32,000 bases of DNA from Pseudodesulfovibrio mercurii (GTDB taxonomy: Bacteria > Desulfobacterota > Desulfovibrionia > Desulfovibrionales > Desulfovibrionaceae): the NCBI RefSeq assembly GCF_000189295.2, contig NC_016803.1, positions 3,480,001-3,512,000 on the forward strand, in the 5' to 3' direction. The position numbers were made by a program, and so were the translations under genes. The notes beneath the pieces were generated by a model, which searched no databases, was not told the DNA's origin, and saw only the letters and a list, made by a program, of their open reading frames with translations. Shown piece by piece: positions 4,035 through 32,000 of this stretch (the stretch's first letter is position 1; the number at the start of each line of letters is the position of its first letter).

Positions 4035-4084
4035 TTGTTGCCGGTTCTTTTGTGCTATCCCATCCGCAAACAGGAGCACACGGC

Positions 4085-12447: not shown

Positions 12448-12481
12448 GTCGCCCCCCCACGCGGGGGGCGTGGATTGAAAC
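12448..12481 (+). repeat. Variant 34-nt CRISPR repeat (repeat 13) with a paired C and G insertion
   Basis: It reads GTCGCCCCCCCACGCGGGGGGCGTGGATTGAAAC, with 7 C and 6 G where the consensus has 6 C and 5 G. Each arm of the hairpin gains one base. Confidence 0.9.
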
Positions 12482-15400: not shown

Positions 15401-18226
15401 GTGGATTGAAACACCGGCGATCTGACCATGACCACCTACTCCGGCGTCGCCCCCCACGCGGGGGCGTGGATTGAAACGCAGCCTGGAGCAAGGCCGATGC
15501 GTGCAGCCCGTGTCGCCCCCCACGCGGGGGCGTGGATTGAAACAGGATGCCCTTGCCCAGGGCGGTCAACACGCTCATGTCGCCCCCCACGCGGGGGCGT
15601 GGATTGAAACGATTTATTCACCGGGCGATTAAAGCCGGTGTTTGGTCGCCCCCCACGCGGGGGCGTGGATTGAAACGGCCTGCTTATGAAAGAATGTCCG
15701 TTGATACTCCAGTCGCCCCCCACGCGGGGGCGTGGATTGAAACCGATGGTCGCCGTGCCTGCCGCGATGGCGAACTGTCGCCCCCCACGCGGGGGCGTGG
15801 ATTGAAACCCGTGGCGTAGTCGCCCGGCATGTCCTCCCGTCTCGTCGCCCCCCACGCGGGGGCGTGGATTGAAACCGTGACACCGTTAAATAAATAGGTA
15901 ACACAAAATGGTCGCCCCCCACGCGGGGGCGTGGATTGAAACGAGCGTGCCGAAAAGCTTAACCTCAAAAAGTCGGGTCGCCCCCCACGCGGGGGCGTGG
16001 ATTGAAACATGTAATACAGATCATATCCAGACACGGAAAAAGTCGCCCCCCACGCGGGGGCGTGGATTGAAACGGTCAGGCTGTACCCCTTGTAACGCTT
16101 GGCTTCGGTCGCCCCCCACGCGGGGGCGTGGATTGAAACTGGCAAGCGGGGTGCCTGTGTCTGCCCTGATCCCAGTCGCCCCCCACGCGGGGGCGTGGAT
16201 TGAAACATGCTCTGCCGCTCGACGGTCACTGTCTGCCGGGTCGCCCCCCACGCGGGGGCGTGGATTGAAACGAAAGTAAATCGTTGCTGCATGCTACTCC
16301 TCCGGGTCGCCCCCCACGCGGGGGCGTGGATTGAAACCAGACCGCGACGTTCCAGGAACATCCTCAAACGTTGTCGCCCCCCACGCGGGGGCGTGGATTG
16401 AAACCTGTCCAGGTCTTGAGGTTGGACAGCGTGGGCTGGTCGCCCCCCACGCGGGGGCGTGGATTGAAACCGTTGCTAATAAGATTCGGAGCCACCGCCA
16501 AGAGGTCGCCCCCCACGCGGGGGCGTGGATTGAAACGAGCCCCAGGGCAAGGGCGAGCAGTACGGGAACGGTCGCCCCCCACGCGGGGGCGTGGATTGAA
16601 ACCAGACCGCGACGTTCCAGGAACATCCTCAAACGTTGTCGCCCCCCACGCGGGGGCGTGGATTGAAACATCAAGGCGGTTGGAATCGCGATTATCGCCG
16701 GACGTCGCCCCCCACGCGGGGGCGTGGATTGAAACTCGAAACTGCCGTCGACGTAGAGCGCCAGCACACGTCGCCCCCCACGCGGGGGCGTGGATTGAAA
16801 CCATTCCTCGCACCCGTTGCACTGGGGCGGCCTGGGTCGCCCCCCACGCGGGGGCGTGGATTGAAACTGCCCCAGCTCGTATGCGCCCGGCACCTGTAGT
16901 AGTCGCCCCCCACGCGGGGGCGTGGATTGAAACCGTGGCCGCATATGCACCGGACCAGGAGTCGAAGTCGCCCCCCACGCGGGGGCGTGGATTGAAACGA
17001 GCAGATCCTGATATGCGAGGCGCTGGCCGACGAGTCGCCCCCCACGCGGGGGCGTGGATTGAAACTATAAGCCCAGGACTACCGTCGCCACCAGCAACAG
17101 TCGCCCCCCACGCGGGGGCGTGGATTGAAACAATCCTAACTCCAACCAGGGGAGCGCATCGTGAGTCGCCCCCCACGCGGGGGCGTGGATTGAAACCGCC
17201 TCTCGCCCTGCCCGAGCCGCCGAAGCCTAAGGTCGCCCCCCACGCGGGGGCGTGGATTGAAACGCTCGGGGGGGTACACCCACCCCATCGAGGCCTGGTC
17301 GCCCCCCACGCGGGGGCGTGGATTGAAACTTTCTCCGGCGGCGAGACTGACCTGTTCCGTGAGGTCGCCCCCCACGCGGGGGCGTGGATTGAAACTTGAC
17401 CTGCCAGGGTGTAGTCGTGGTTGCCATGGGGTCGCCCCCCACGCGGGGGCGTGGATTGAAACTGTCGAGCAGGGACGCCGATAAATGCCGTATCGCGTGG
17501 TCGCCCCCCACGCGGGGGCGTGGATTGAAACGTCGGTCAGTGTAAGTTCGGTGCCGTTGACGGTTGGTCGCCCCCCACGCGGGGGCGTGGATTGAAACCA
17601 CGTCGCGTGGATGCCCTTGATCGCCTTGGCCGTCGCCCCCCACGCGGGGGCGTGGATTGAAACTCTGTTTTCGAAAACCGTGACCACGGTCTCAGTGACG
17701 TCGCCCCCCACGCGGGGGCGTGGATTGAAACTGCAATGAATAGGCAGGAAAGCTCTACAGGATGGTCGCCCCCCACGCGGGGGCGTGGATTGAAACCCTG
17801 GCGCACCGCTGCGGAGTGCATCGACTGGTCGTCGCCCCCCACGCGGGGGCGTGGATTGAAACACCTGGGCGTCGGGGCCATCGGCAACGGCGGTGCTGGT
17901 CGCCCCCCACGCGGGGGCGTGGATTGAAACACCTCCTCCATCATCAGGGCGTCGGTGATCATGGTCGCCCCCCACGCGGGGGCGTGGATTGAAACCGCCC
18001 CGAGGAGTAGCGCAAAGGTCCGCATGGTGTCGCCCCCCACGCGGGGGCGTGGATTGAAACCTGCAATGACTGCGACCGGCGGCATGCCCAGGAGTCGCCC
18101 CCCACGCGGGGGCGTGGATTGAAACCACGCGGACTCGCGCAAAATCTGGTCCGCCCTGTGTCGCCCCCCACGCGGGGGCGTGGTTTGAAACGACACCGTG
18201 GACACCAGGGACTGCTCCGGCAACTC

Positions 18227-18260
18227 GTCGCTCCCCACGCGGGACGTGGAGCGTGAAATC
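18227..18260 (+). repeat. Degenerate terminal CRISPR repeat (repeat 100)
   Basis: The sequence GTCGCTCCCCACGCGGGACGTGGAGCGTGAAATC matches the consensus over the first 17 nt apart from one mismatch, then diverges. Leader-distal repeats typically decay in this way. Confidence 0.75.
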
Positions 18261-18361
18261 TGGAACTTGCAAGGCTTCACCGTTGGTGGTTGCGGAGAAT
18301 GGTGCGCGAGGGCTGAAACCGGGGGTGTCCGGTCAGTTCCGTGACCTCCGGGAATCCGGGG

Positions 18362-19206: not shown

Positions 19207-19971
19207 CTAGCCCGTCCCGTTCCGGCCCATGCGTCGCTGCACGCGCTGGAGCTTGGCCGCGATGTTCTCGATCCATTCGGACGGCAGCTCGTTGACGCTC
19301 TCGCGCAGCCGGTTCTGCCACCAACTGGATATGTCGGCCAGGTCCTTGGCCTCGTAGCGCTGCTCCACGATCTCGTGGCTGTGGCGCGAGTAGAGGACCA
19401 CGTCCACCGGGAAATCCACGTCGGACGCGGAGATGCGCGTGGAGTCGAAGGCCAGGCAGCCGACCTTGAGGGCGAAGTGCAGGGGATCGCCGTGCTGGAG
19501 GGTGCGGTCGAGCACGGGCTTGCCGTACCCGCCCTCGCCGATGATGTGGTAGGGCGTGGTGCCCTGGCCGATCTCCACCCAGTTGCCCTCGGGATAGATG
19601 AGATAGAGCTTGTGGGTCGAGTCGCCCGTGAGCTGACCGCCCACCAGGGTGTGCAGGTTGATGTTCAGCCCGCCCCGGCAGAGGTAGGCCTCGTCCTCCC
19701 CGCACACGCGCCGAAGCTCCTCGGCCATCAGGTTGACCATCTTGTAGAGCTTGTCGGGGCGCTCCTCCATGGTGTCGAGGCGCTCCTCGAAATAGGTGAT
19801 CATCTTGTCGCGCACGCTGCGCAGGCCGGAGGTCATGACGAAGAACGCGCCGAACCCGTTCTGGTAGGCCGTGACCTTGCGCGCGGTGATGATCTCGTTG
19901 CCGGAGGTGATGCGCGTGTCGGCGATGCCGACCAGCCCTTCCTCGACGTTGATTCCAAGGCAGAATGTCAT
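19207..19971 (-). CDS. Anbu (ancestral beta-subunit) proteasome-like T1 peptidase
   Basis: The preferred start is ATG 19971, giving MTFCLGINVEEGLVGIADTRITSG. This is the Anbu-type MT(Y/F)C N-terminus, with Thr as the presumed nucleophile. The protein is 254 aa. Its position between alpha-E and transglutaminase matches the conserved Anbu operon. Confidence 0.8.
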   Translation of the reverse strand: MTFCLGINVEEGLVGIADTRITSGNEIITARKVTAYQNGFGAFFVMTSGLRSVRDKMITYFEERLDTMEERPDKLYKMVNLMAEELRRVCGEDEAYLCRGGLNINLHTLVGGQLTGDSTHKLYLIYPEGNWVEIGQGTTPYHIIGEGGYGKPVLDRTLQHGDPLHFALKVGCLAFDSTRISASDVDFPVDVVLYSRHSHEIVEQRYEAKDLADISSWWQNRLRESVNELPSEWIENIAAKLQRVQRRMGRNGTG

Positions 19972-19984
19972 GGCGCGATTGTTC

Positions 19985-20962
19985 TCACTGTTCGCCGGGG
20001 GAGTCAAGCGGCTCGTCGGACACGCTGAAGAAGGTCCGGGACACGGCCTCGTCCACCTGGTTCATGCGCGTCTGCAGGTTGTCCGTGAACTCGTGCAGGC
20101 CCCGGCCGATGATCTCCTCCACGGAGTGGAAGGACATCTCGCCCACCAGCTGGCCCAGGACCTTTTCCGCCAGGTTGGAGAAGTGGCCGATGGGCGTGCC
20201 CGTGATCTGGTGCAGGGAGTTGCGGGACACGGTCAGGCAGTGGAGCACGGCGCGGGGGAAGTCGTGGTCCAGGAGCAAAAACTCCACCACGCTGCCGGGC
20301 GAGATGGGCCCGAAGCGGTGGCGGTAGGCCTGGAAACCGGAGGCCGCCTTGAGCAGTGCGCTCCACTGGATGTGGTCCAGGGTGGAGTTGATGTCCTCGG
20401 CCTTGGGCAGGAGGTGAAAGTACTTGACGTCCAGCAGGCGGGAGGTCTTGTCCGCGCGCTCCAGCATGTTCCCGAGATGGGTGAAGTAGAAGGTCTCGTC
20501 CCGGGTCATGGCCGCGGCCGAGACCCCGCCGAGGATGAAGCCGCGCCGCTTGACCTCGTTGCAGAACGAGAACGGGTTGACGACCACGGTCTCGGGCCGG
20601 TCCGCCGCGCGCTCGACCATGTGGTAGAAGATGTTCACCTCTTCCCACATCTCGGTGGGGATCATCTCGCGGATGGTCCGGGCGTTCTCCCTGGCCATGC
20701 GCAGGCAGGAGCGGATGGAGTTGGTGTATTCGGTGTCGAAGAGCAGGAACCGGAGGACGTTTTCCCGGTCCGCCCGTTTGAAGCGTTCGAAGAACAGGGC
20801 GCGGTCGCCCGTGGTGGCCACCAGGGGCTCCCACTGCTCCCCGAAATTCTCGGGCATGTCCAGGGTCAGCAGCCAGTTGACGTCCACCAGCCGGGCCAGG
20901 TTCACGGCCCGCTCCAGGTAGCGGCTCATCCAGTATACCGCGTCGGCAACGCGTGAAAGCAT
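19985..20962 (-). CDS. Alpha-E domain protein (DUF403 family)
   Basis: The protein is 325 aa with the N-terminus MLSRVADAVYWMSRYLERAVNLARLVDV, characteristic of alpha-E proteins. An SD (GAGAGGAAAG) lies upstream of ATG 20962. The gene follows the circularly permuted ATP-grasp gene. Confidence 0.88.
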   Translation of the reverse strand: MLSRVADAVYWMSRYLERAVNLARLVDVNWLLTLDMPENFGEQWEPLVATTGDRALFFERFKRADRENVLRFLLFDTEYTNSIRSCLRMARENARTIREMIPTEMWEEVNIFYHMVERAADRPETVVVNPFSFCNEVKRRGFILGGVSAAAMTRDETFYFTHLGNMLERADKTSRLLDVKYFHLLPKAEDINSTLDHIQWSALLKAASGFQAYRHRFGPISPGSVVEFLLLDHDFPRAVLHCLTVSRNSLHQITGTPIGHFSNLAEKVLGQLVGEMSFHSVEEIIGRGLHEFTDNLQTRMNQVDEAVSRTFFSVSDEPLDSPGEQ

Positions 20963-21004
20963 GGTCTTTCCTCTCGAAACGTTAAGTGGCGGTCCCCGTG
21001 CCCG

Positions 21005-22438
21005 CTAGCGGGCCAGGACCCAGGTGTCCTTGCTGCCGCCGCCCTGGGAGGAGTTGACCACCAGCGACCCCTTCTTGAGGGCCACGCGGGTCAGTCCGCC
21101 GGGGATGACGCGGATCTCGCCGCCGTAGAGCACGTAGGGCCGCAGGTCCACGTGCCGCCCCTCGAACCCGCCGTCCACGATGACCGGCACGCGCGAGAGC
21201 TTCACCGTGGGCTGGGCGATGTAGTTGCGCGGCCGGGCCTTGATGCGCTCCGCGAAGTCCGTCTGCTCCTCCCTGGTCGAGTGCGGGCCCACGAGCATGC
21301 CGTAGCCGCCGGACTCGTTGGCCGCCTTGACCACCAGCTCGTCCAGGTGGTCGAGGACGTAGGCGCGGTCCTCGTCCCGCCAGCACAGGTAGGTGGGCAC
21401 GTTGGGGATGATCGCCTCCTGGCCCAGGTAGTATTTGATGATCTCGGGCACGTAGGCATAGACGACCTTGTCGTCGGCCACGCCCGTGCCCGGCGCGTTG
21501 ACCAGGGTGACGTTGCCCCGCCGGTAGGCGTCCATGATGCCGGGCACGCCGAGCAGCGAGTCGGGCCGGAACACCGTGGGGTCCAGGAAGTCCTCGCCCA
21601 CGCGGCGGTAGATGACCTCCACGGGCTTGAGCCCCTTGGTGGTGCGCATGTAGACCACGCCCTTCCTGACCACCAGATCGCGGCCCTCGACCAGCTCGAT
21701 GCCGGTCTGCTGGGCCAGGTAGGAGTGCTCGTAGTAGGCCGAGTTGTAGATGCCGGGGGTGAGCAGGGCGCAGGTCGGGTTGGCGTTCCGGTTGGGGGCC
21801 ACGTCGTGCAGGGTCTGGAGCAGATGGGCCGGGTAGTCCTCCACGGGCCGGATGCCCGCGGCCGCGAAGACCTGGGGGAAGGTCCGTTTGAGGATCTGGC
21901 GGTTGGCCATGACGTAGGACACGCCGGAGGGCGAGCGCAGGTTGTCCTCCAGGACGTGGAACACGCCCTTGTCGTCGCGCACCAGGTCCGTGCCGGTGAT
22001 GTGGCACCAGACCCCGCCGGGCGGGTCGATGCCCAGGCACTCCTCGAAGTACCCCTCGGCGGTGAAGATGACGTCGCCGGGCACCACGCCGTCCCTGATG
22101 ATCTTCTGGTCGTGGTAGATGTCGTCGATGAACAGATTCAGGGCCTCGATGCGCTGCTTGAGCCCGAGCTCCAGCCGGTTCCAGTCGGCCGCCTCGATGA
22201 TCCGGGGGATGATGTCGAAGGGGAAGATCCGTTCGGTGCCCTCGTCGTTGCCGTAGACCGTGAAGGTGATGCCGAGATCGTAGAACGCCTGCTCCGCGGC
22301 CTGCTGCCTGGACTGGATCTCCTCCATGCCGAGGCTCATGATCTTGTCCACGAGCAGCTGCGCGCCGGGGCGCGGGACGCCGGGGGCGGCGAACATCTCG
22401 TCGTAGTGCGGTCCGATGTCGTAGTCCTTGAAATCCAT
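21005..22438 (-). CDS. Circularly permuted ATP-grasp type 2 protein (predicted amidoligase)
   Basis: The protein is 477 aa. Its size, its first position in the ATP-grasp / alpha-E / Anbu / transglutaminase order, and blocks such as [23 protein letters not shown] and [14 protein letters not shown] fit the DUF404/DUF407 family. Confidence 0.88.
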
Positions 22439-22748: not shown

Positions 22749-23732
22749 TCAGTTCGAACCCGTCACCGCCTCCCAATCCGCGAGAACGGCATCACCCATG
22801 GATTTCGCCGCCTCCGAGCCATACCGCGGCGCGGAAAAATCCGGGGCGGCGGGCAGCTTCTGGAGGAGGATGCCGTCCGTCCCGAACCAGAGGGGAAGAT
22901 AGGCGCTCAGGAAGAACCGTTCGCCGCGCAGGACGTCGATGGCCCAGGGCGTTGCCCGGTCCCCCAGGTCCAACCGAACGTGCATGGAGCATCCGGCGGC
23001 CTCGGCCCGGAACCGGGCCAGCACGTCGGGCAAGTCCTTGCCCGCTCGAAAGATCGTGAGCGTGGCCATGGAGGCGTCCCGCAGGACATCCGATTGCGCA
23101 TTGGTCGATGGGGGAACGGGTGAAGCTCCCGGCTCGACGGTCCGTTTGATCCCGAGTGCCCGATTGCGCCGTTCGATGAATTCGACATAGTCGGGATGCG
23201 GGTGGATGGTATGCGGGGTATCCCTGTAGATACGGAAAAGCGTGAGCAGGGAGGTGTTGACGACGACCCCATTGTCCTGTTTCGGTCCCATGGGCGGAAT
23301 CCGCTCCAACTCCACGCCCGTGGGGAGCAGCCCGCAGTTGGTCGCGGAAGGCTGGGACAGGGTGTGGCTGCACAGGGCCTCGATGAACACGGCGTCTACG
23401 GGGATCTGCGTCGGAAATTCCTCGAGGACCACACGTCCTATGATGTTGGACAGCCCTTTGCCCCGGTGTCGTTTGGAGACCATCAACTGACCGGCTTCAT
23501 AGAGCAGGGGATTGGGCGCAAAGCGAAAGAGGCTGCCCATGGCTGCGAGCCTGTCTTCGCCATCGCGCACAATTGTGGTCCGATGGTTCACGCCGTCGTA
23601 CCGCCGGGAGATTTCCGCCGGGTCGTAGACGTATTTGAGCGGGAAGCCGTCGCCATACGTCTCCTTGTAGAAACGGGAGACATCAGGGGCGTCTTCGGGA
23701 GTGAACAGGGTGATGCGGAATTCGTTGCTCAT
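22749..23732 (-). CDS. Double-GNAT-fold protein (N-acyltransferase superfamily), substrate unknown
   Basis: The protein is 327 aa. The N-terminal half has a GNAT acyl-CoA-binding-type block (QLMVSKRHRGKGLSNIIGRVV). The C-terminal half ends in a GNAT-like beta-hairpin region (RGERFFLSAYLPLWFGTDGILLQKL). Its architecture parallels residues of about 170-448 of the protein at 27479-28825. There is no obvious SD. A 108-nt gap containing a GC hairpin (23801-23827) separates it from the ThiF-like gene. Confidence 0.7.
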   Translation of the reverse strand: MSNEFRITLFTPEDAPDVSRFYKETYGDGFPLKYVYDPAEISRRYDGVNHRTTIVRDGEDRLAAMGSLFRFAPNPLLYEAGQLMVSKRHRGKGLSNIIGRVVLEEFPTQIPVDAVFIEALCSHTLSQPSATNCGLLPTGVELERIPPMGPKQDNGVVVNTSLLTLFRIYRDTPHTIHPHPDYVEFIERRNRALGIKRTVEPGASPVPPSTNAQSDVLRDASMATLTIFRAGKDLPDVLARFRAEAAGCSMHVRLDLGDRATPWAIDVLRGERFFLSAYLPLWFGTDGILLQKLPAAPDFSAPRYGSEAAKSMGDAVLADWEAVTGSN

Positions 23733-23840
23733 CGTGTTATCGGGTTGAGGGTTTTCGGGAATTCGCGGAAAGGCGCGACGGTTGCCGTCACCGCAGCCCG
23801 GACCGCCCGGCGGAGGGGGGGGCGGTCGGCCGGACGGGGA

Positions 23841-24641
23841 TCAGGGTTCCCCTGGCCGGGTGATGTCGGCCACCCGCATCCGCTGGGTCATGAAGTCTAG
23901 GGCCACATAGTTCGGGGCGAATACGGGAGAGCGCTCCACCAGGCCCGTGCCGGCCAGGAAATAGGCCAGCACCTCGTTGGCCAGCAGGGCATTGGCGGCC
24001 AGCCCGCCGATGGCCGTGGTCGCCACCTTTCCCGATGACAGTCCCTGCCGTATCCGCTCCATGGCCGGGCCGCAGAAATGGCGTTGCATGGAAGTGGGCA
24101 AAAGGCCTCCCCCGGTATCGTCCTTCATGGCGAGGGTCCAGAATTCGTCCGCCTTCATCCCGTCAGGCGCGAAGTTGACCATGATCGCCCCGAAGCCGAC
24201 GGCCCCGCATGTGAAGACCGGAACTCCGTATCGCTCCTGCATGGCCGGGGTCATCCTTTTCACATCCTCGCCCTTTTCCGCATCAATGACCGCGACATAG
24301 GCGTCCGCCCCGTCCAGGAAGCCCCCCAGGTTGTCGGCGTTGACGCCATCGGGGTACGGCACCATTTCCAGGTCGGGATTGATGGAAAGGGCAAGTTCCA
24401 TGTATACTTCGAGTTTATGTCGATTCATGGTGGAGCCGAAGGCCGCTGCCTGGCGATTCATGTCCGGCGGATCGAAGATGCCGTTCTCCGCCAGCCTGAA
24501 CCGGCTCGCGCCGCAACGAACCAGGGCGAGAAACGCCCCTCCGCCCACGCCGCCGAGCCCGGCAAAGGCGATCTCCTTGTCCCTGAGGATCGTGAAACCG
24601 CTTTCTTTCATGATCGGGCGGGTTCGGCTCAAAAAATCCAT
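23841..24641 (-). CDS. ThiF/MoeB/HesA-family E1-like adenylyltransferase (minimal, 266 aa)
   Basis: The preferred start is ATG 24641, preceded by GGGAGG about 6 nt upstream. A Rossmann nucleotide loop (AFAGLGGVGGGAFLAL) is followed by FDPPDMNRQ. INPDLEMV and the remaining blocks follow in the usual ThiF order. The upstream part of the 330-aa ORF-track product is Arg/His/Cys-rich junk and is rejected. Confidence 0.85.
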   Translation of the reverse strand: MDFLSRTRPIMKESGFTILRDKEIAFAGLGGVGGGAFLALVRCGASRFRLAENGIFDPPDMNRQAAAFGSTMNRHKLEVYMELALSINPDLEMVPYPDGVNADNLGGFLDGADAYVAVIDAEKGEDVKRMTPAMQERYGVPVFTCGAVGFGAIMVNFAPDGMKADEFWTLAMKDDTGGGLLPTSMQRHFCGPAMERIRQGLSSGKVATTAIGGLAANALLANEVLAYFLAGTGLVERSPVFAPNYVALDFMTQRMRVADITRPGEP

Positions 24642-24726
24642 GACTACCTCCCGGCCCATGGCTCGGTGACGGCCATGGCGCAAGTGTCGGCAAGACGAAG
24701 CATGCCGGTGTCGGCGATGAAGGAAC

Positions 24727-26202
24727 CTATCCTTGCCCTGCGCAATCCCGGCAGTCGAACAAGGAGAAACACATTTCCCCGTGGCCTTCCGGAGTCTCTC
24801 CCCGCAGGCCGAGGTCGTCGAGCAACGGGGCAAGGGAGTCGGGTTCCCCGTTATATCCGAGATGGTTCAGTTCGGCCAACCCCTCCTCCCGGGAGATCAG
24901 CCCGAAATAGACGCCCGCGCCGACCTCGACGACGGACTGGGGGAAAAAGGTGCTGCGCATATTTTTGAACCGCATGAACTGGCAGTGATCCTTGACGGTC
25001 TCAATGCGGCAACTGGTATGGAGCATCCCCTTGTGTCCGGGAGGCATTTCCCACGCCATCTCCTTTTTGATCAGTTCGCCGACCTCCTTCCAGGTGCCAT
25101 AGGTCTCGTTGGTCTTCAATCGGCGTAGTTCGGGCACGGCAAGGGTCGTGTCCCTGCGGGCCGCGTCCAAGGTCCGGTCGAGTTGGCGGTACAAGGGCGC
25201 GAGGCGTTGTCGGACGGAGCGTTGGTAGCGGAGGAACTCGGCCGTTATGGCGTGCGGCGAACAAGGCTCGGGGGCGTTGGCGACCATGTCGAAAAAGTTG
25301 AGGGTCATTTCCCGTTGGGTGGGAGCGGGAGCCTTCGCGGCCGTACGCGGGGATTTCAATTCGCTCATGACGTAGCTGAACACGGCGAGCTGGACCTCCT
25401 CGACCCCTTGCATGATGAAGGGAATCCGTTCCTCCACGGCCACAGGGAAGAAGAGGACGTGCGCCACGGTGGGGCAAAGACAGGGAATCCCGATGGCCGC
25501 GAACTGTTCCCGCATGGCCTGCCGTATCATGTCCCTGGGCAGGGTGCGTTCGATCAGTTCCACCGACGGCAGCAGCTCGATGGACCGTCGGAGATTTTCA
25601 CGACAGGTGTCGTTGGTGTAGGGCATGTTCCAGGCTGCGGCCAGGACCCGCAGGCCGAGTTTTTTCGCCAGTAACCATAAGAGATAGGTGGAGTCCTTTC
25701 CGCCCGTGCACAGCACCATGACATCGAAACGCGATTGGGTGTTGTTGCGCGCCGCCGCGAGCAATTCCGCTTCGGTGATGTAATTTTGCGGACCGGCCGA
25801 GGCCCCCGCCTTTTCCGCCCGTTCATAGCATTGGCAGAAAGCGCACAGGCCGTTCTCGTCGAATTCGAGGCCCGGAATGAGGTAATCGTCATTGACGCAA
25901 CGGATGCACCGCTGGCGGTGTTCCGGCGTGGCGGGTTTCCGGACGTTCGTGGCGTCGACGATGACCCCCTCTTCGGCCAGACGCGCAAAGTCGGGATGTC
26001 CGGTCAAGGATTCCGGCAGGTCGGCAAGAGTGCGGCCCCCATCCAGCGAGGCTATGCCCTCTGCAATTTCCGGAGCGACTTCCAGAATGGACCGGGTGTG
26101 CCGTGGGGGATTGCGCAATCCGTAATAGACCAGAACGGTCTTGTTTCCGTCTTCGCGCGGTTGCCAACGATATTGAAGAGTCGGACGAGTGGGGAGCGCC
26201 AT
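24727..26202 (-). CDS. PP-loop (N-type) ATP pyrophosphatase with an N-terminal zinc ribbon (WbpG/PseA-amidotransferase-like core) and an extra PqqD/RRE-like N-terminal domain
   Basis: The protein is 491 aa. AGGAG lies 5 nt upstream of ATG 26202. It has a zinc-ribbon motif (CIRCVNDDYLIPGLEFDENGLCAFCQCY), a PP-loop (VLCTGGKDSTYL) and a C-terminal cysteine cluster (CFSLFDCRDC). Residues of about 1-95 precede the ribbon and are not part of the standard family layout. Confidence 0.85.
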   Translation of the reverse strand: MALPTRPTLQYRWQPREDGNKTVLVYYGLRNPPRHTRSILEVAPEIAEGIASLDGGRTLADLPESLTGHPDFARLAEEGVIVDATNVRKPATPEHRQRCIRCVNDDYLIPGLEFDENGLCAFCQCYERAEKAGASAGPQNYITEAELLAAARNNTQSRFDVMVLCTGGKDSTYLLWLLAKKLGLRVLAAAWNMPYTNDTCRENLRRSIELLPSVELIERTLPRDMIRQAMREQFAAIGIPCLCPTVAHVLFFPVAVEERIPFIMQGVEEVQLAVFSYVMSELKSPRTAAKAPAPTQREMTLNFFDMVANAPEPCSPHAITAEFLRYQRSVRQRLAPLYRQLDRTLDAARRDTTLAVPELRRLKTNETYGTWKEVGELIKKEMAWEMPPGHKGMLHTSCRIETVKDHCQFMRFKNMRSTFFPQSVVEVGAGVYFGLISREEGLAELNHLGYNGEPDSLAPLLDDLGLRGETPEGHGEMCFSLFDCRDCAGQG

Positions 26203-26268
26203 GGTTTCTCCTGATGCTGGCTGGGCAGAATGGTTGAACCGTATATCCGAATCAGTCGGAACCTGTGA

Positions 26269-26297
26269 ATAATATTGCCAATCAGTTGCTAAAACAA
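26269..26297 (-). promoter_or_regulatory. Possible internal promoter ahead of the PP-loop gene
   Basis: On the minus strand: TTGTTT (plus-strand 26292-26297), a 17-nt spacer, then TATTAT (26269-26274). It sits in the AT-rich centre of the 183-nt gap between the aminotransferase and PP-loop genes. This is a pattern match only. Confidence 0.2.
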
Positions 26298-26385
26298 GTG
26301 CCTCCCCTCAGGCGGACGATCCGGGACGGCTCCCTTGCCGTTCAGTGCGGATTGCCCGGTGGCCGTATCGTCAACCGGGAAATCC

Positions 26386-27495
26386 TCATCGGAACATGTC
26401 CGTCAGGACGGAACAAAATTCCTCCAGCACAGGCCGTTGCTCCAGGCTGACGCGGATCCAGTTCGGGAAGCGGAAGCCCGTCATGGTGCGAACCAAAAAG
26501 CCTCGGCGCAGGAGTTTGCGTTGCAGCAGGGTATCGGAGAGCGGCGTCCGGATCATGACGTAGTTCCCCTCGCCGATGATGTGCTCGAAGCCGAGTTCGG
26601 CACAGGTTTCGTGGATCAACTCGCGTCCCTGACGGACCATTGCCCGGGTCTCCTCGATGAACGGGGACTGGTCCAACAGCGCTGCCCTGGCGGCCTGTTG
26701 GGCCGGGGTGTTCACGGAATAGGCCACGTGCGCACGGCTGATGATGTCCGTGACCTCCTCGCCGGCGCAGAGGTAGCCCACGCGCAGCGCGGCCAGGGCG
26801 TACATCTTGGAGAACGTCCGGAAGACCACCAGATTGGGGTACTCGTCCAGCAGGCGGATGCAGTCCGGATAGTCGGGCCGTTCCACGTATTCGAAATAGG
26901 CCTCATCCGCCACCACGATGCACCGTCCGTCCAAGGCGTTCAGAAAGCGGCGCATGGTTTCTTCATCCCAGTAGGTCCCGGTGGGATTGTTGGGATTGCA
27001 CACGAAGATGATCTTGGTCCGGCCGTCCATGGCGGCGAGCATGGCATCCGGGTCGAATCGCTGATTGCGGTCCAGCGGGATCAAACGCGGCTCGAAGCCG
27101 GAAAATCGCGCCACCCATTCGTAGACCGCAAACGTCTTGTCCGCGGTGATGATGTTGTCGCCGGGCTCACAGAAGGCCTTGACCACGCTCGAAATCAGTT
27201 CGCATGATCCGTTGCCCACCAGAAACCGCGACCGGTCATGGCCCAGGACTCCGGACAGCGCCTCCCGCAGGTCCTGGCTGTCGCCATGGGGATAGATGGG
27301 CACGATGCCCGCCTCGATTCCGGCCAGCAGCTCGCGCACCGCGGGCGAAGGCCCGAGTGTGTTCTCGTTGTTGTTCAGGCGATGCAGATGGGTCAGGCCG
27401 TTCAGCCGCATCAACTCCCTGTCCGGCGGACTCGGCCGGTACGGATCGAAGAGCCGGATGTACTCCGGGACGAGATGGTCAAGCTTCAGGGTCAT
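26386..27495 (-). CDS. HisC-family (class II) PLP-dependent aminotransferase
   Basis: The protein is 369 aa. It carries LNNNENTLGPSP, CNPNNPTGT and the PLP-lysine block FSKMYALAALRVGY, as in histidinol-phosphate/aromatic aminotransferases. Its ATG 27495 lies 17 nt inside the upstream gene, so the two overlap. Whether this is the housekeeping hisC or a pathway-specific paralogue cannot be decided from this window. Confidence 0.88.
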   Translation of the reverse strand: MTLKLDHLVPEYIRLFDPYRPSPPDRELMRLNGLTHLHRLNNNENTLGPSPAVRELLAGIEAGIVPIYPHGDSQDLREALSGVLGHDRSRFLVGNGSCELISSVVKAFCEPGDNIITADKTFAVYEWVARFSGFEPRLIPLDRNQRFDPDAMLAAMDGRTKIIFVCNPNNPTGTYWDEETMRRFLNALDGRCIVVADEAYFEYVERPDYPDCIRLLDEYPNLVVFRTFSKMYALAALRVGYLCAGEEVTDIISRAHVAYSVNTPAQQAARAALLDQSPFIEETRAMVRQGRELIHETCAELGFEHIIGEGNYVMIRTPLSDTLLQRKLLRRGFLVRTMTGFRFPNWIRVSLEQRPVLEEFCSVLTDMFR

Positions 27496-28825
27496 GGCGG
27501 AAGATCAGGGTATCGGACTGCCCGCCGTGGGGCAGCATGAGCACGGGCCGGAAGCCGCATTGCTTCAGGGGGCCGCCCAGGGCGGCGTGCCAGCCTTTGG
27601 CCAGATCGATCTCGAACAGGATGTTTCGGTAGCCCGAGGACGAAAGGCTCGCCACGTGCCGGGCCAGGTTGTCGCCGATGTCCGCCCCGTTGAGCTCCGG
27701 GTGCAGGAAGGCTTCGCTCAGGCCCGGGGTGAGACACGCGCCGATTACCGAGGCGTCCGGGATTGTTTCGCCGAAATCGTGCACCGGTCGCAGGTCGCGT
27801 ACCATCTCAAGGGAATCGTAGCGGCCGCGAAGAAAGTCCGCGAAGTCCTCATGCGCCCAGACCGCCGCGCCGAAATCCTCCTGGAGCATGCGGCCCCATA
27901 CGGAGTGCGTCACCGGATCAGGCGAGTCGGTGAGCCGGTACGGCAGGTTGGCCAGCAACTCGAAGCCGTGGTCCGACAGCGGCAGCGTGGACAGGCTGCT
28001 GAACACGTTTTTGGCCCGGCTTCGTCCCACTGTCTGCAGCAGGGCGTTGGTCAGTCCATCGGCCACGGAGCCGTCCGTGGAGAAATCGTAGGGCCCGAAA
28101 AACGTGACGCTCTGTTCGGAACGCATTTTCCAGAAAATGATCCCGCAGAGGCGACCGGCCGCGTCGCGGGCCTCGGTGGCGAAGAGTTCTCCGCCCCGGA
28201 CAAGGTCTGATGTCCGGCCCGGACTTGCACACCACTCCGGCACCAAATGTCCCGGGTAGAGCCCGGCGAGGGTGCCGCATGCCTCGAACAGCGTGTCCGT
28301 GTCCACGGCCGGGGAAAAGACCGGAGTTCCCTGCACCCGGACCCTCTCCGCCGGGAGCGGCGCGGGTTCGGGATAGACCTTGTCCACCCGCAGGACGATT
28401 TCCATGCGCAGGCCCTCCAGTCCCACCTTAAACCCGTCGGTCATCCGGGAGGCCAGCAGCAGGGGCAGGCAGGTCAGGTCGCACTCCTCGCTTTTCGTAT
28501 CGTGGACATACGTCAGATTCATCGCTGAAAGGTTGACGCCCGACGAGGAGAAGGAGAACCGTATCTCCGCTCCGGTGGCGATGGGACGAAGGGTCGCTTC
28601 GATCTCGCCGGCCTTGGCCGAACTGAGAAACAACAGCAACTCTTCGGAACAATGGGCCAGACGCATGGTCTTGGCCGAGTCCAAGCCGAAAACGGCTCCC
28701 GCCTGTTTGGCCGCCGCCTGCACCAGCCCGGCCCAGGCGGCCTCGGCAGGGAGATGGAGACGGATGCACGGCACGGATGTGTTCACGGAAATACTCGCTG
28801 ATGCAATTGAGAGAACTCGGCGCAC
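27479..28825 (-). CDS. Multi-domain protein: unrecognised N-terminal domain of about 150 aa plus a double GNAT-like module
   Basis: The ORF is 448 aa. Residues of about 170-448 parallel the 327-aa GNAT protein at 22749-23732, for example ...GRLCGIIFWKMR...GPYDF...ADGLTNALLQTV... and the C-terminal LKQCGFRPVLMLPHGGQSDTLIFRH. The start is uncertain: GTG 28825 has no SD, and in-frame GTGs 39 and 51 nt downstream are alternatives. Confidence 0.65.
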   Translation of the reverse strand: MRRVLSIASASISVNTSVPCIRLHLPAEAAWAGLVQAAAKQAGAVFGLDSAKTMRLAHCSEELLLFLSSAKAGEIEATLRPIATGAEIRFSFSSSGVNLSAMNLTYVHDTKSEECDLTCLPLLLASRMTDGFKVGLEGLRMEIVLRVDKVYPEPAPLPAERVRVQGTPVFSPAVDTDTLFEACGTLAGLYPGHLVPEWCASPGRTSDLVRGGELFATEARDAAGRLCGIIFWKMRSEQSVTFFGPYDFSTDGSVADGLTNALLQTVGRSRAKNVFSSLSTLPLSDHGFELLANLPYRLTDSPDPVTHSVWGRMLQEDFGAAVWAHEDFADFLRGRYDSLEMVRDLRPVHDFGETIPDASVIGACLTPGLSEAFLHPELNGADIGDNLARHVASLSSSGYRNILFEIDLAKGWHAALGGPLKQCGFRPVLMLPHGGQSDTLIFRHDPEA

Positions 28826-28954: not shown

Positions 28955-29195
28955 ATTGTTGTTCACTCCGGAGTGCCGCCCCTTTGGGCCTGGTCCCGCC
29001 GGGCGGCGCAGCGCGTCGGACGACCATGCAAAAGCGCTGGGCGGTCCGGTAACGTGGGCCCTATCGGTCGGTTTGCATCTCCTTCCTGTCTTTTCCCAGA
29101 TCAATGACAATGTCGGTAACCTCGCATCGGGAGTAACCAATAATGCAACGCCGGCAGTCCAGGCGGGGCCCTCCGCAAGTTTCGCTTGACGCCGG

Positions 29196-29230
29196 AAATA
29201 TTGTAGGACAAAGATTGTCGGACAATATTT
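29196..29230. promoter_or_regulatory. Operator-like element: four phased TTGT/ACAA half-sites inside a 35-nt imperfect palindrome
   Basis: The sequence is AAATATTGTaggACAAagaTTGTcggACAATATTT. Half-sites start at 29201, 29208, 29215 and 29222, a 7-nt phase. The outer 9-nt arms are perfectly complementary. The element lies about 80 nt upstream of the ABC permease ATG (29309). Confidence 0.35.
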
Positions 29231-29308
29231 GCCTGTTCGGTCCTTATCCAGTCGAAACCGACTGCAAGGCCGGAACGTATCGCGGCACCAAGGACCAATG
29301 GAATCGAG

Positions 29309-30187
29309 ATGGAAACAAACGACAAGATCATTCCCCTTAGGCATTACGGGCGCTGGGTTTCAGGTGCCATCCTGATCGCCCTCCTTGGCCTCATCGTCAA
29401 CGCATTCATCGTCGGCCAGATCGACTGGCCCGTGGTGGGCAAGTTCTTTTTCTCGCCGGCGCTCATCCGTGGCCTGGGAAATACCATCCTCATCACGGTC
29501 TGTTCCATGATTGTCGGTCTGATTCTGGGCGTTGTCTTTGCCGTCATGCGGCTGTCGAAGAATCCCGTCACTCGTTGGTTTTCCGGGCTGTACATCTGGC
29601 TTTTCCGCGGCACCCCCGTGTATTTGCAATTGCTGATCTGGTTCAATCTGGCACTGATCTTCCCGATCGTGAATCTCGGCTTCGCGGAATACCGGATGGT
29701 GGACGTCATGACGCCGTTCGTTGCCGCTCTTTTCGGCCTCGGCCTCAATGAGGGCGCGTACATGACCGAAATCGTACGGAGCGGCATTCTCTCGGTGGAC
29801 AAGGGGCAGGTCGATGCCGCGACAACCTTGGGGATGACCCGTCTGACGGCCATGCGGCGAATTGTTTTGCCCCAGGCCATGCGGGTCATTGTTCCCCCGG
29901 TGGGGAATGAATTCATAGGTCTTCTCAAGACCTCCTCCATGGCGAGCGCCATAGCCTTTACCGAACTGTTGCATCGGGCGCAGCTTATCTATTTCGTCAA
30001 TGCCAAGGTCATGGAATTGCTCATAGTTGCTACTGGTTGGTACTTGATCGTCGTGACGTTGCTGAGTTTTTTCCAAGTGGGAATCGAGCGCAGATTCAAT
30101 CGTGGGCACTCGTTCTCCGCCCGTCGGAGCCTGTTTGCTGTCTTCAAGTCTAATGTTTTGGGTAAAAAGCAACAGGGGAGAGCCTAG
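29309..30187 (+). CDS. Polar amino-acid ABC transporter permease (HisM/GlnP family)
   Basis: The protein is 292 aa with multiple TM helices. Its EAA-loop region ([30 protein letters not shown]) is typical of His/Glu/Gln/Arg/opine-family permeases. Confidence 0.9.
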
Positions 30188-30189
30188 TC

Positions 30190-30960
30190 ATGCCTCAAAC
30201 CGAACCGATGCTTCGGGCATTGAATGTCCATAAATCCTTTGGCGAACACGAGATTCTCAAAGGAATCACTCTCGAAGTGAACAAGGGCGAGGTCCTGTGC
30301 CTGCTTGGGCCTTCCGGCTCCGGAAAGAGCACGTTTCTTCGTTGCATCAATCACTTGGAAAGGATTAATGCCGGCCGGATTTATGTCGGCGGCGAATTGG
30401 TGGGGATAAACGAGCGCAATGGCCGACTGTACGAGCAGAATGAAAACGAGCTCTGCAGGATGCGCATGAAAATCGGGATGGTTTTTCAGAGTTTCAATCT
30501 CTTCCCGCACATGACCGCACTGGAAAACGTCATGGAAGGCCCGGTTACCGTGTTGAAGAAGGACCCGGAAGAGGTAAGGGCCCGCGCTTACGAGTTGTTG
30601 GAAAAGGTGGGACTCCGCGATTGGGCGGATCGATTTCCCAAACAACTTTCCGGCGGCCAACAGCAACGTGTCGCCATCGCCCGTTCCCTGGCCATGGAGC
30701 CCGAACTCATGCTGTTCGATGAACCGACCAGCGCCTTGGATCCTGAACTGGTGGGGGACGTCCTCAAGGTCATGCGCGACCTTGCCGAAAGCGGCATGAC
30801 CATGGTCGTGGTCACCCACGAGATGGAATTTGCCAAGAACGTGGCGCACAAAGTTGTCTTCATGGACGAGGGCAACGTGTTGGAACAAGGGACCCCGATC
30901 GATATATTCGAGAGCCCCCGGCATGAGCGCACAAAGGCTTTTCTGGGTTCCATCGATTGA
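30190..30960 (+). CDS. Polar amino-acid ABC transporter ATP-binding protein (GlnQ/HisP-like)
   Basis: The protein is 256 aa. It has Walker [10 protein letters not shown], the Q-loop, the ABC signature [13 protein letters not shown] and Walker [12 protein letters not shown]. The SD GGGGAGAG precedes ATG 30190, which lies 3 nt after the permease stop. Confidence 0.95.
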
Positions 30961-31150
30961 TCCCAGCTTCCGGGAGCGAAAAGTGCCCCTCAATTTCGTA
31001 ATAATTACGGCCAATACGGGATCAGGTGTTTGCCGGAAGGCGCAACCCTTCGTGAGGATGAATGGATTGTTGTCCCTTCAGGCCCATGCCTTCTGCCGTA
31101 TTACGTATGAACTGTAACCCATTCCATAAAAGGTGAGAGGAGAGAGAGTC

Positions 31151-31999
31151 TTGAAGAAATTCACCGCCATTGTTCTGTGTTTGCTCGTCTTGGGTCTGGT
31201 CGGGACGGCCTTTGCCGGCGAAAGCCGCGATCTGCTGCCTGACTCCATCAAGGAAAGCGGAAAAATCATTGTCGGCATCAACGGTATTTTCCCGCCCATG
31301 GAATTCAAGGAGCCCGGTACCGATACCCTGGTCGGCATCGATGTGGAGCTGGTCGAGGCCATCGCCAAGGAGTTGGGCGTCAAGATCCAGTACGATGACC
31401 AGCAGTTCGACCAGCTGATCAACTCCATCAACACCAAGCGTGTCGACATGGTCATCTCCGGCATGTCCGACAGCGCTGTCCGCCGTGAGTCCTTGGACTT
31501 CATCGACTACTTCAATTCCGGGACCCAGTGCTTCACCACAAAGGCCCTTGCGGGTGAGATTACCGACCTCGAGGCCCTGGACGGAAAGACCCTGGCCGTT
31601 TCCGCTGCAACGGACTACCTGACCACCATGCAGAAATGGAATGAGGACAACCTGGTTTCCAAGGGCAAGGCGGGCATCAACATCATGGCCGTCGACTCTG
31701 CCGCCTCCGCCCGCATGCAGATGTTGCAGGGCCGCGCTCAGGCCTCCGCTCTGAGCCCCGAGGCGTTGGGCTGGGCCAATGTGCAGCAGAAGGGGGCTTT
31801 TGTGGCCGTCGGACCGCTGCTGGAGTCCAATCCTTACGGCATCGCTTTCAGCAAGAACAACGCCCAGCTGCGTGACGCGGTGTACGCGGCGCTGCAGAAG
31901 GTCTTCGCCGACGGCACCTATATGGCGATCATGAAGAAGTGGGGAGCCGAGTCCGGTGCTCTGACTCAACCGCTGATCAACGGTAAAGCCGTCAATTAG
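31151..31999 (+). CDS. Periplasmic amino-acid-binding protein (family 3 SBP) of the ABC transporter
   Basis: The preferred start is TTG 31151, 8 nt after GGAG (31139-31142). This gives a signal peptide (M)KKFTAIVLCLLVLGLVGTAFA. Blocks such as GINGIFPPMEFK, GIDVELVEAIAKELG and DMVISGMS are typical of polar amino-acid SBPs. The ORF-track GTG 31133 is an alternative start. The stop is TAG 31997-31999. Confidence 0.88.
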   Translation: MKKFTAIVLCLLVLGLVGTAFAGESRDLLPDSIKESGKIIVGINGIFPPMEFKEPGTDTLVGIDVELVEAIAKELGVKIQYDDQQFDQLINSINTKRVDMVISGMSDSAVRRESLDFIDYFNSGTQCFTTKALAGEITDLEALDGKTLAVSAATDYLTTMQKWNEDNLVSKGKAGINIMAVDSAASARMQMLQGRAQASALSPEALGWANVQQKGAFVAVGPLLESNPYGIAFSKNNAQLRDAVYAALQKVFADGTYMAIMKKWGAESGALTQPLINGKAVN

Positions 32000-32000
32000 G

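Follow-up and report, generated by a model that had tools for sequence, protein, structure and literature searches.

A modular gene cluster in Pseudodesulfovibrio mercurii pairs a PP-loop protein resembling N-acetyl sugar amidotransferases with an E1-like adenylyltransferase

Introduction

The N-acetyl sugar amidotransferases (NASATs; WbuX, WbpG, PseA and LfnA, covered by TIGR03573) are PP-loop enzymes that turn an amide into an amidine, and cell-surface sugars are the only setting in which this activity is known. Their signature comprises a CxxC-Xn-[GN]xCxxC motif, seen with bound zinc in the structure 8wex, plus an SGGxDS PP-loop (PMC10607449). A second group of PP-loop enzymes of anaerobes, the [4Fe-4S] sulfur insertases CtaC, TtuA, TtcA and Ncs6, includes one member, CtaC, which acts on the backbone amide of a non-ribosomal peptide and whose native sulfur source is unknown (PMC6772006). 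Here we describe a cluster of five genes in a 32,000-nucleotide stretch of Pseudodesulfovibrio mercurii ND132 (contig NC_016803.1, positions 3,480,001 to 3,512,000; the whole stretch is called the window below), in which a protein resembling the NASATs is encoded beside a ThiF-family, E1-like adenylyltransferase, two putative tandem-GNAT proteins and an aminotransferase. The association of these genes is conserved and modular, and we tentatively suggest that together they make a small metabolite bearing an amidine.

Two further precedents are relevant. Peptides are the substrates of stand-alone E1-like enzymes in the pathways to microcin C and pantocin, and MccB, PaaA and the tRNA ct6A dehydratase TcdA are carrier-independent E1-like adenylating enzymes, as the ThiF-family protein of the window is likely to be. 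In ectoine synthesis, the transaminase EctB is followed by N-acetylation by the GNAT EctA and by formation of a cyclic amidine by EctC.

The five-gene locus

A preliminary description of this DNA, made from the letters alone, reported five co-oriented minus-strand genes with short gaps or overlap. All five open reading frames (ORFs) were confirmed at the same coordinates and lengths (Table 1), and correspond to locus tags DND132_3129-3133. The 491-aa and 327-aa proteins are 100% identical to DND132_3131 and DND132_3129, respectively, and the 266-aa protein is 100% identical to a database entry annotated 'UBA/THIF-type NAD/FAD binding protein'. Genes 1 and 2 share 17 nt, the start of the second lying within the end of the first, and gaps of 183, 85 and 108 nt separate the genes that follow. 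For gene 4 the mechanical ORF runs to 24833; the database protein (P0142) has 266 residues. Public sources label the proteins 'hypothetical' and no paper in the searchable literature mentions the locus tags. In agreement with the preliminary description, the cluster maps to no named pathway. The superfamilies represented are known, but the combination of genes and the branch of PP-loop proteins are without prior description.

A PP-loop protein resembling NASATs

The product of gene 3 has no match in Pfam. Among NCBIfam models it gives a partial match to TIGR03573 (WbuX, N-acetyl sugar amidotransferase) over residues 98-270 (85.2 bits, E=5.6e-24). An AlphaFold2 model of good quality (predicted local distance difference test, pLDDT, 87.5; predicted template modelling score 0.87) has as its best Foldseek match in the PDB the Legionella NASAT 8wex (E=6.4e-10, template modelling (TM) score 0.42-0.55 over ~410 columns), with which it shares a similar overall fold and a helical C-terminal half. 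TtuA comes next (E=7e-6, TM-score 0.22-0.34), followed by LarE, YcfA and AsnB. No sequence match was found to the [4Fe-4S] PP-loop sulfur insertase families (TtuA, TtcA, Ncs6 and CtaC).

Residue conservation, judged over 70 homologues, supports the same relationship. The tetracysteine zinc ribbon satisfies the NASAT signature and stands directly before the PP-loop Rossmann-like domain, as it does in NASATs. Both the CxxC...CxxC ribbon and the TGGKDS motif, which had been picked out in the preliminary description, are invariant, the PP-loop starting with Thr where the NASAT SGGxDS has Ser. Further invariant residues are E268, Q271, E401 and K404, along with three additional cysteines, in versions of motifs (CxC-P and HTSC) that differ from those of NASATs; these cysteines are discussed below. 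The N-terminal ~95 residues form a domain that canonical NASATs lack. The secondary structure of the model predicts a beta-beta-beta-alpha-alpha-alpha order for it, resembling a winged helix or a recognition element (RRE) of pathways for peptides made on the ribosome and modified after translation (RiPPs), and its invariant residues are R12-W13 and G28.

An exhaustive profile search among 1.84 billion representatives shows the family proper to be small, with ~43 clusters at E<=1e-30, and to grade into ~1,000 NASAT-like proteins. Sequence and model together place the protein, as it appears, as a far outlier of the NASATs, with a predicted role in activating the oxygen of an amide or carbonyl group.

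A minimal ThiF-family protein

The assignment of gene 4 to the ThiF/E1-like proteins is borne out by a match to PF00899 at 1e-16. The protein belongs to a subfamily of stand-alone proteins of ~265 residues and reaches the cutoff of no NCBIfam model; the closest, at 140 bits, is PRK08223, itself uncharacterised. Its nearest solved structure is TcdA (7e-9, residues 10-149), although it reaches just 40.9 bits with the TcdA equivalog model PRK15116, under the cutoff of 304, and its identity to TcdA, MccB and PaaA is ~25-30%. The minimal Rossmann domain retains the residues for ATP binding and adenylation in invariant form (G28-x-GGVG33, R42, D57, D60, N62-R-Q64, K76 and D120). The protein has three cysteines, C43, C145 and C190, of which none is conserved and none lies in a CxxC pair; there are no zinc-binding CxxC pairs, no crossover-loop catalytic cysteine and, in 266 residues, no peptide clamp or extra domain.

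No ubiquitin-like partner is apparent. Among ORFs of 55-115 aa, neither the window nor the 6 kb on either side of 80 related loci (see below) contains a GG-ended beta-grasp carrier, the candidates being low-complexity, spurious ORFs. Intergenic ORFs of 15-110 aa were also clustered over the 80 loci as potential precursor peptides, but all of the clusters are alternative-frame artefacts, and the small ORFs of the window are of low complexity. Since there is no conserved cysteine, zinc site or GG-ended carrier, the gene 4 protein is best read as an adenylation-only enzyme, presumably with a carboxylate of a small molecule or peptide as its substrate. Its partners, a NASAT-like PP-loop protein, GNATs and a transaminase, are unlike those of any described E1-like system. 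The earlier separation of this locus from the thiamine, molybdenum cofactor and TtuABC contexts is consistent with the lack of a carrier or of any conserved small ORF. The microcin C context is absent too, the E1-like protein having no peptide clamp; of the reasons first given, that of the missing efflux pump needs correction, efflux genes being present in orthologous clusters.

The GNAT-like proteins and the aminotransferase

The gene 1 protein matches nothing in Pfam or NCBIfam. In profile-profile comparison with hhalign, however, its residues 18-444 align with a family of HATPase_c_2+GNAT proteins (family F3; 99.1% probability, E=5e-19), members of which match the RsbW structure 6m36 as well as PF13581 (5e-23). 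The gene 5 protein aligns with the C-terminal two-thirds of the same family, residues 176-497 (99.9% probability, E=2e-35). Compared with each other, the two give 86.7% probability (E=4e-6) by profile but only E=0.05 with BLASTP. They are, as had been proposed, distant paralogues with a tandem GNAT module. The N-terminal domain of gene 1, at first unrecognised, is by the same comparison a degenerate RsbW/GHKL-like domain, or pseudo-kinase: in the hhalign alignment the kinase N and G boxes are degenerate, and so is the GNAT acyl-CoA motif. Orthologues of gene 1 (31-38% identity) are found in 10 loci of clade A (see below) and in loci L004 and L087.

Gene 5 has a weak match to PF00583 (E=0.05; 14.3 against a threshold of 20.7). 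It keeps the acyl-CoA motif as R88-H-R-G91-K-G93 (motif A, R/Q-x-x-G-x-G/A), and a Foldseek search with its model returned 497 GNAT matches, with the tandem GNATs 2zw4, 3tt2, 7q3a and 9en3 among the top.

Modules of RsbW, STAS and SpoIIE proteins, the last with dCache-HAMP regions, adjoin the cluster in six loci of different lineages (L011, L032, L051, L033, L045 and L087). Together with the fusion of RsbW-like and GNAT domains, this suggests partner-switching control of an acyltransferase. Coordinates for such RsbW-like kinase, STAS and dCache-HAMP-SpoIIE genes are L087:1566-4270 and L001:12560-15357.

Gene 2 is a HisC-family aminotransferase, as first described, matching PF00155 at 3.4e-55. 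It scores 275.2 bits with the hisC equivalog TIGR01141, 1.3 below the cutoff of 276.55. Whatever the arrangement of the locus, it has a gene 1 homologue beside it in L086, in L087 and in 10 loci of clade A, and this constant pairing argues that it may be a dedicated paralogue.

Conservation and modularity

One genome per species was scanned across 185,579 species. Relatives of the PP-loop protein numbered 348, from which 80 loci were kept. These were grouped into clades by identity to the PP-loop protein of the window, and neighbouring genes were taken as a greedy non-overlapping set since overlapping frames pollute high-GC DNA. Clade A (identity ≥57%) has 23 loci in Desulfovibrionaceae, Desulfobulbia and Syntrophia; clade B (50-57%) has 8, mostly from Syntrophorhabdus; clade C (38-50%) has 16 of mixed origin; and clade D (~30%) has 34 from Firmicutes, Bacteroidales and Bacilli metagenome-assembled genomes. 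A ThiF gene lies within 10 kb in 22/23, 1/8, 7/16 and 0/34 of these, respectively.

Conservation is strongest in clade A. The 17 loci whose flanks reach 3 kb or more on each side all have the ThiF gene, and in the 22 of 23 loci where it is found it adjoins the PP-loop gene, always co-directionally but either upstream or downstream. Start-stop overlaps or 3-nt gaps between the two genes occur across three phyla. Gene 5 is found in 16 of the 23 loci and gene 1 and the aminotransferase in 10 each; the complete set of five is present in 10, with shuffled order, the pair of gene 1 and the aminotransferase being placed upstream of the other genes, downstream of them or in divergent orientation. The PP-loop, ThiF and double-GNAT genes thus co-occur across genomes, and the fact that they do so despite the shuffling rules out an accidental adjacency.

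Other loci show parts of the set. Locus L088 (Syntrophales), found from relatives of the ThiF protein, has ThiF and PP-loop genes only, and PP-loop-only loci also occur. Conversely, L086 (Desulfuromonas sp.) is a co-directional run of genes for a gene 5-like GNAT, a 1317-aa non-ribosomal peptide synthetase (NRPS) module of the form C-A-T-C, ThiF, a homologue of gene 1, an aminotransferase resembling HisC (55% identity) and an MFS transporter. In L087 (D. mangrovi) a gene 1-like protein, a HisC-like aminotransferase (63%), ThiF, a MATE transporter, a GDSL-like protein, a gene 5-like protein and an MFS transporter are encoded, adjoining a divergent RsbW/STAS/SpoIIE module. No PP-loop gene was found within 7 kb in either; a 483-aa L086 protein considered as a candidate proved by BLAST to be the gene 1 homologue. 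Two modules with the ThiF gene in common thus make up the window cluster. One comprises the PP-loop gene with or without ThiF; the other comprises ThiF, gene 1, the aminotransferase and gene 5, accompanied by efflux genes and sometimes by an NRPS. The five-gene cluster of the preliminary description accordingly holds as a conserved co-occurrence, though not as one fixed unit.

The more distant clades differ. In clade C the order is ThiF, the PP-loop gene, a ~500-aa protein of the RsbW-like HATPase_c_2+GNAT type and a carboxyltransferase; in some loci an acyl-CoA ligase and an MFS transporter come next. Clade D is without the ThiF, GNAT and aminotransferase genes of the window cluster and without these partners of the clade C gene. 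In 24-25 of its 34 loci the PP-loop gene is followed on its 3' side, usually with an overlap, by a gene for a flavodoxin-like ferredoxin with two [4Fe-4S] clusters of the 'EFR1 family' (for example L062:11350-12054 and L073:11347-12057), a partnership on which the searchable literature holds nothing. In Syntrophorhabdus-type loci a TrmO/TsaA-like protein, scoring 118.6 bits with TIGR00104 and so above its cutoff, is encoded 3' of the PP-loop gene (L041:11480-11896; also L027, L029 and L043), and in some a sigma54 GAF-domain activator precedes that gene.

PP-loop domains embedded in NRPSs

A tblastn search against plasmids revealed a 2682-aa NRPS of Roseovarius (L090:3511-11559, R. pelagicus plasmid NZ_CP106737.1) whose first adenylation domain is interrupted by an insert of ~325 residues (839-1162). 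The insert is a NASAT-like domain with a zinc ribbon, SGGKDS, C-N-G-C and S-T-N-C motifs, and sits between the core and the C-terminal subdomain of the adenylation domain; the second module is without it. Three further NRPS fragments with a PP-loop insert (P0419, P0429 and P0431) came from the exhaustive search. The inserted domains are characterised by a zinc ribbon, SGGKDS, CxGC and S-T/S-N-C, with a CxxC or CxC equivalent to C241-L-C243 of gene 3, and P0429 also has an N-terminal region with a radical-SAM-like CxxxCxxC motif. No description of adenylation domains interrupted in this manner was found in the searchable literature. They offer a genome-mining handle for amidine- or thioamide-containing peptides.

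A proposed pathway

We propose, with a confidence that stops somewhat short of even, that the cluster is a conserved modular pathway which turns an amino acid or short peptide into a small metabolite rich in nitrogen, with the ATP-dependent conversion of an N-acyl amide to an amidine as its signature reaction. The proposal builds on the observed gene content, folds and motifs, conserved linkage, modularity and association of orthologous clusters with NRPS and efflux genes; from these we infer the substrates, the order of steps, the nucleophile (nitrogen rather than sulfur) and the product. The HisC-type transaminase (gene 2), dependent on pyridoxal phosphate, would place an amine on a keto- or amino-acid-like precursor, and the tandem GNAT (gene 5) would then N-acylate it. 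The PP-loop enzyme (gene 3) would adenylate the amide oxygen with release of pyrophosphate, after which ammonia or an intramolecular amine would displace AMP to give the amidine. Finally the ThiF protein (gene 4) would prepare this molecule for ligation or cyclisation by activating a carboxylate on it. The gene 1 protein might serve as a regulatory or scaffolding subunit, possibly subject to STAS/SpoIIE partner switching.

An amidine is preferred because NASATs, the sole characterised proteins to which gene 3 is related in sequence and in fold, make one from an amide. In addition, clusters for acetamidino sugars hold the same triad, namely an aminotransferase (DegT or class III), a PseH-like GNAT and a NASAT, together with HisH and HisF, and the presence of an aminotransferase, GNAT and NASAT-like protein in the window favours the same order of transamination, N-acylation and amidine formation. 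The ectoine pathway likewise runs from a transaminase through a GNAT to an amidine built on an amino acid, though only its logic is analogous: there is no homology to EctC, the amide would here be activated with ATP through a PP-loop enzyme, and an E1-like enzyme is added. The guess of the preliminary description, a pathway forming an amide, amidine or thioamide, fits both the NASAT-like gene 3 and the cluster of L086 with its NRPS and MFS genes, the chemistry being predicted from sequence.

Several observations weigh against the proposal. The gene 3 protein falls far under the 203.2-bit cutoff of TIGR03573, covering positions 3-172 of the 344 in the profile, or half of it, whereas a control NASAT scores 351 bits. 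Neither the window nor the 80 related loci contain HisH/HisF ammonia suppliers or glycan or nonulosonic-acid genes; the absence of sugar-nucleotide and glycosyltransferase genes, in favour of ThiF, tandem GNATs and a HisC-type transaminase, agrees with the earlier exclusion of a WbpG/PseA context. The model of gene 5 is of low confidence (pLDDT 63). Although exporters of the MFS and MATE families occur in orthologous clusters, the window cluster has none. The ~30%-identical relatives from Firmicutes and Bacteroidales have the same active site without ThiF, GNAT or aminotransferase, and with a ferredoxin fusion instead; this partner implies a redox need unexpected for an amidotransferase. Clusters like those of L086 and L087, which combine ThiF, gene 1, aminotransferase and gene 5 without a PP-loop gene, indicate that the amidine step would be optional.

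If the proposal is correct, amide-oxygen activation of the NASAT type would extend from cell-surface sugars to the chemistry of small molecules and non-ribosomal peptides, and an adenylation-only E1-like enzyme would be tied to amidine-type chemistry without a ubiquitin-like carrier. Post-translational control of a biosynthetic acyltransferase by partner switching would also be suggested. The products would form an unexplored family in strictly anaerobic Desulfobacterota, a group poorly mined for natural products, and the host, P. mercurii ND132, is a genetically tractable, mercury-methylating sulfate reducer.

A broader claim is more speculative, and we consider it rather unlikely as a whole. 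The PP-loop protein might represent an undescribed class of ATP-dependent enzymes modifying backbone or side-chain amides, which combine the NASAT scaffold with a redox-active metal site of three cysteines and occur in three formats: stand-alone with an E1-like partner, coupled to ferredoxin in gut Firmicutes, and inserted in NRPS adenylation domains. The product of the window cluster would then bear an amidine or thioamide and possibly bind metal, and the acyltransferase would be gated by the RsbW/STAS/SpoIIE system.

Alternative readings

The strongest competitor retains the cluster as a unit but makes the PP-loop protein a [4Fe-4S] sulfur insertase which makes a thioamide from an amide or a thiocarbonyl from a carbonyl, by comparison with CtaC, TtuA, LarE and YcfA; ThiF would either deliver sulfur as the thiocarboxylate of a carrier whose gene lies elsewhere or activate a carboxylate of the substrate. 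We hold this to be unlikely, though it draws on several lines of evidence. The invariant cysteines beyond the zinc ribbon are placed +70, +72 and +227 from the PP-loop, near the +76, +79 and +206 of the CtaC ligands (PMC6772006). The Foldseek matches that follow NASAT are iron-sulfur or sulfur-inserting PP-loop enzymes, and the combination of ThiF and PP-loop enzyme echoes that of TtuC and TtuA. The family is confined to anaerobes, its distant clade D is operonic with the flavodoxin-2x[4Fe-4S] protein, and the host lives in sulfide. Against this, the TM-scores to TtuA are low and indicate another PP-loop subfamily, the motif is CxC and not CxxC, neither a sulfur carrier, a cysteine desulfurase nor a rhodanese is encoded near the loci, and the ThiF protein is without a cysteine for a persulfide or thioester.

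The wider distribution of the cysteine trio bears directly on this question. It is absent from an Azospirillum NASAT (351 bits with TIGR03573) flanked by HisH/HisF and sugar genes. Most NASAT-like matches of 340-430 aa, however, which score 135-229 bits with TIGR03573, carry CxxC or CxC plus H-x-[DS]-C. A metagenome scan with a NASAT-like alignment gave 73 anchors, all 73 with the full trio, and seven of them lie in nonulosonic-acid clusters with HisF-like and HisH-like proteins, NeuB, a formyltransferase and PseH-like GNATs. The trio, once considered as proof of iron-sulfur or thio-chemistry, is thus not indicative of it, being present in NASATs of amidotransferase context; it would seem typical of a large branch of genuine amidotransferases, many NASATs of glycan clusters among them. 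In these proteins it may form a second metal site, which may split the NASAT family into two types. Trio-bearing NASATs of classical nonulosonic-acid clusters are L150, L158-L160, L163, L166 and L168 from the metagenomes, as well as P0366 and P0374. There the trio takes the form CxxC plus K/H-x-E/D-C, which the paper on 8wex does not mention.

According to a second alternative, the conserved core of the PP-loop protein, with or without the TcdA-like ThiF protein, modifies RNA or nucleotides by adenylating a nucleobase carbonyl, in the manner of TilS, TtcA and ThiI, and the GNAT and aminotransferase genes are lineage-specific additions. The active site and N-domain are indeed almost invariant from Desulfobacterota to Firmicutes, the PP-loop gene is often alone or accompanied solely by the ferredoxin gene, small genomes included, and the nearest solved relative of the ThiF protein, TcdA, is a tRNA t6A dehydratase. 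The TrmO/TsaA-like gene, found 3' of the PP-loop gene in 4/8 Syntrophorhabdus-type loci, is the only hint of an RNA-modification link among their neighbours; in five clade D loci a TRAM-domain RNA methyltransferase is also near, but such neighbours may reflect shared ancestry of the sampled genomes. With no fused THUMP, TRAM or PUA domain, a family as small and patchy as this one (relatives in 348 species of those scanned), unlike housekeeping RNA modifiers, close relatives that are glycan amidotransferases and NRPS-embedded domains, and NRPSs, CoA ligases and efflux pumps in the ThiF clusters, we regard this alternative as improbable.

Less probable again, and in our view a long shot, is a RiPP or protein-tagging system in which the N-domain of gene 3 recruits, as an RRE, a precursor peptide or the tail of a protein, ThiF adenylates the C-terminus of the peptide as in MccB and PaaA, and the PP-loop enzyme modifies the backbone. 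The precedents of microcin C and pantocin speak for it, as do the beta3-alpha3 order of the N-domain, shared with PqqD-like RREs, and matches to PaaA-like_N, which are weak (2/18 members, E=0.07). Searches of Pfam and PDB profiles with the N-domain gave only sub-threshold winged-helix matches, and an RRE assignment was rejected. The domain shows more conservation between phyla than a variable leader peptide would lead one to expect, the ThiF protein has no clamp to hold a peptide, and none of the 80 loci has a conserved small ORF or GG-ended protein nearby, the small ORFs of the window itself being of low complexity.

The last alternative, a defence-related system tied to the CRISPR-Cas and Anbu loci, which are physically close, or else an accidental adjacency of five genes, is largely refuted and scarcely credible: PADLOC finds nothing for four of the five proteins and only generic E1-E2 matches for ThiF (E>=2.6e-4, around 3e-4), the Anbu, ATP-grasp, Alpha-E and Cas1 genes are not near the cluster in any of the 80 other loci and Cas7 is so once, and accidental adjacency is excluded by the co-occurrence in shuffled order.

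Genomic surroundings

The preliminary description was right about the neighbours of the cluster, which are type I-C cas genes with a CRISPR array, the genes of an Anbu-type operon and a divergent polar-amino-acid ABC importer (Table 1). Its idea of a defence-related role is without support, given that the adjacency is not conserved and PADLOC is negative. Nor is the importer conserved beside the cluster in other loci. A functional tie to the Anbu operon, the CRISPR locus or the importer was therefore rejected, and the context appears incidental.

Table 1. Positions of the cluster genes, of motifs in the PP-loop protein and of neighbouring features in the window
Feature	Positions	Strand	Remarks
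Gene 1, 448 aa, degenerate RsbW-like N-domain and tandem GNAT-like module	27479..28825	-	DND132_3133 by position
Gene 2, 369 aa, HisC-family class I/II PLP (pyridoxal phosphate) aminotransferase	26386..27495	-	
Gene 3, 491 aa, NASAT-like PP-loop ATP pyrophosphatase	24727..26202	-	DND132_3131
Gene 3, N-domain, residues 1-95	25918..26202	-	Absent from canonical NASATs
Gene 3, tetracysteine zinc ribbon C99-x2-C102 ... G118-x-C120-x2-C123	25834..25908	-	Invariant in 70/70 homologues
Gene 3, PP-loop T166-G-G-K-D-S171, ATP alpha/beta-phosphate binding	25690..25707	-	Invariant in all clades
Gene 3, C241-L-C243 (PCLCP)	25474..25482	-	Two of three extra invariant cysteines (homologue alignment)
Gene 3, H395-T-S-C398	25009..25020	-	Third invariant cysteine; candidate second metal site with C241/C243
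Gene 4, 266 aa, minimal E1-like ThiF-family adenylyltransferase	23841..24641	-	
Gene 5, 327 aa, putative tandem GNAT acyltransferase	22749..23732	-	DND132_3129
AT-rich island TTTTATATAATAATATCAA	22500-22600		Between gene 5 and Anbu ATP-grasp gene
Anbu-type operon	19207-22438	-	
Circularly permuted ATP-grasp protein	21005-22438	-	
Alpha-E protein	19985-20962	-	
CRISPR array, ~90 units	12052-18191		Downstream of cas genes
Cas1 region	9594-11177		
Cas7	8660-9535		
Csd1/Cas8c	6941-8656		
Cas3	4052-6250		
Importer permease	29309-30187		Divergent from cluster
Importer ATPase	30190-30960		Divergent from cluster
Importer binding protein	31133-31999		Divergent from cluster

No Rfam match was found in the window, matches to σ54 promoters are rarer than expected by chance, and the promoter and terminator scans were uninformative. 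The short AT-rich island, with 3/6 of the promoter-like hexamer pairs of the scanned region, is a probable promoter for the Anbu operon and delimits the cluster on its 3' side. The 266-aa ORF at 19207-20007, which the preliminary description took as the Anbu peptidase, has no Pfam match at 1e-5. G+C content is 60-65% in the cluster and 65-72% in the upstream region, and falls to 54-57% over the importer region (29001-32000). The CRISPR repeat is 32 nt long (GTCGCCCCCCACGCGGGGGCGTGGATTGAAAC), with spacers of ~33-35 nt, and long ORFs inside the array, such as 13175-18272, are spurious. Upstream of the cas genes lies a 1025-aa ORF of the molybdopterin oxidoreductase family (828-3905), unrelated to the cluster.

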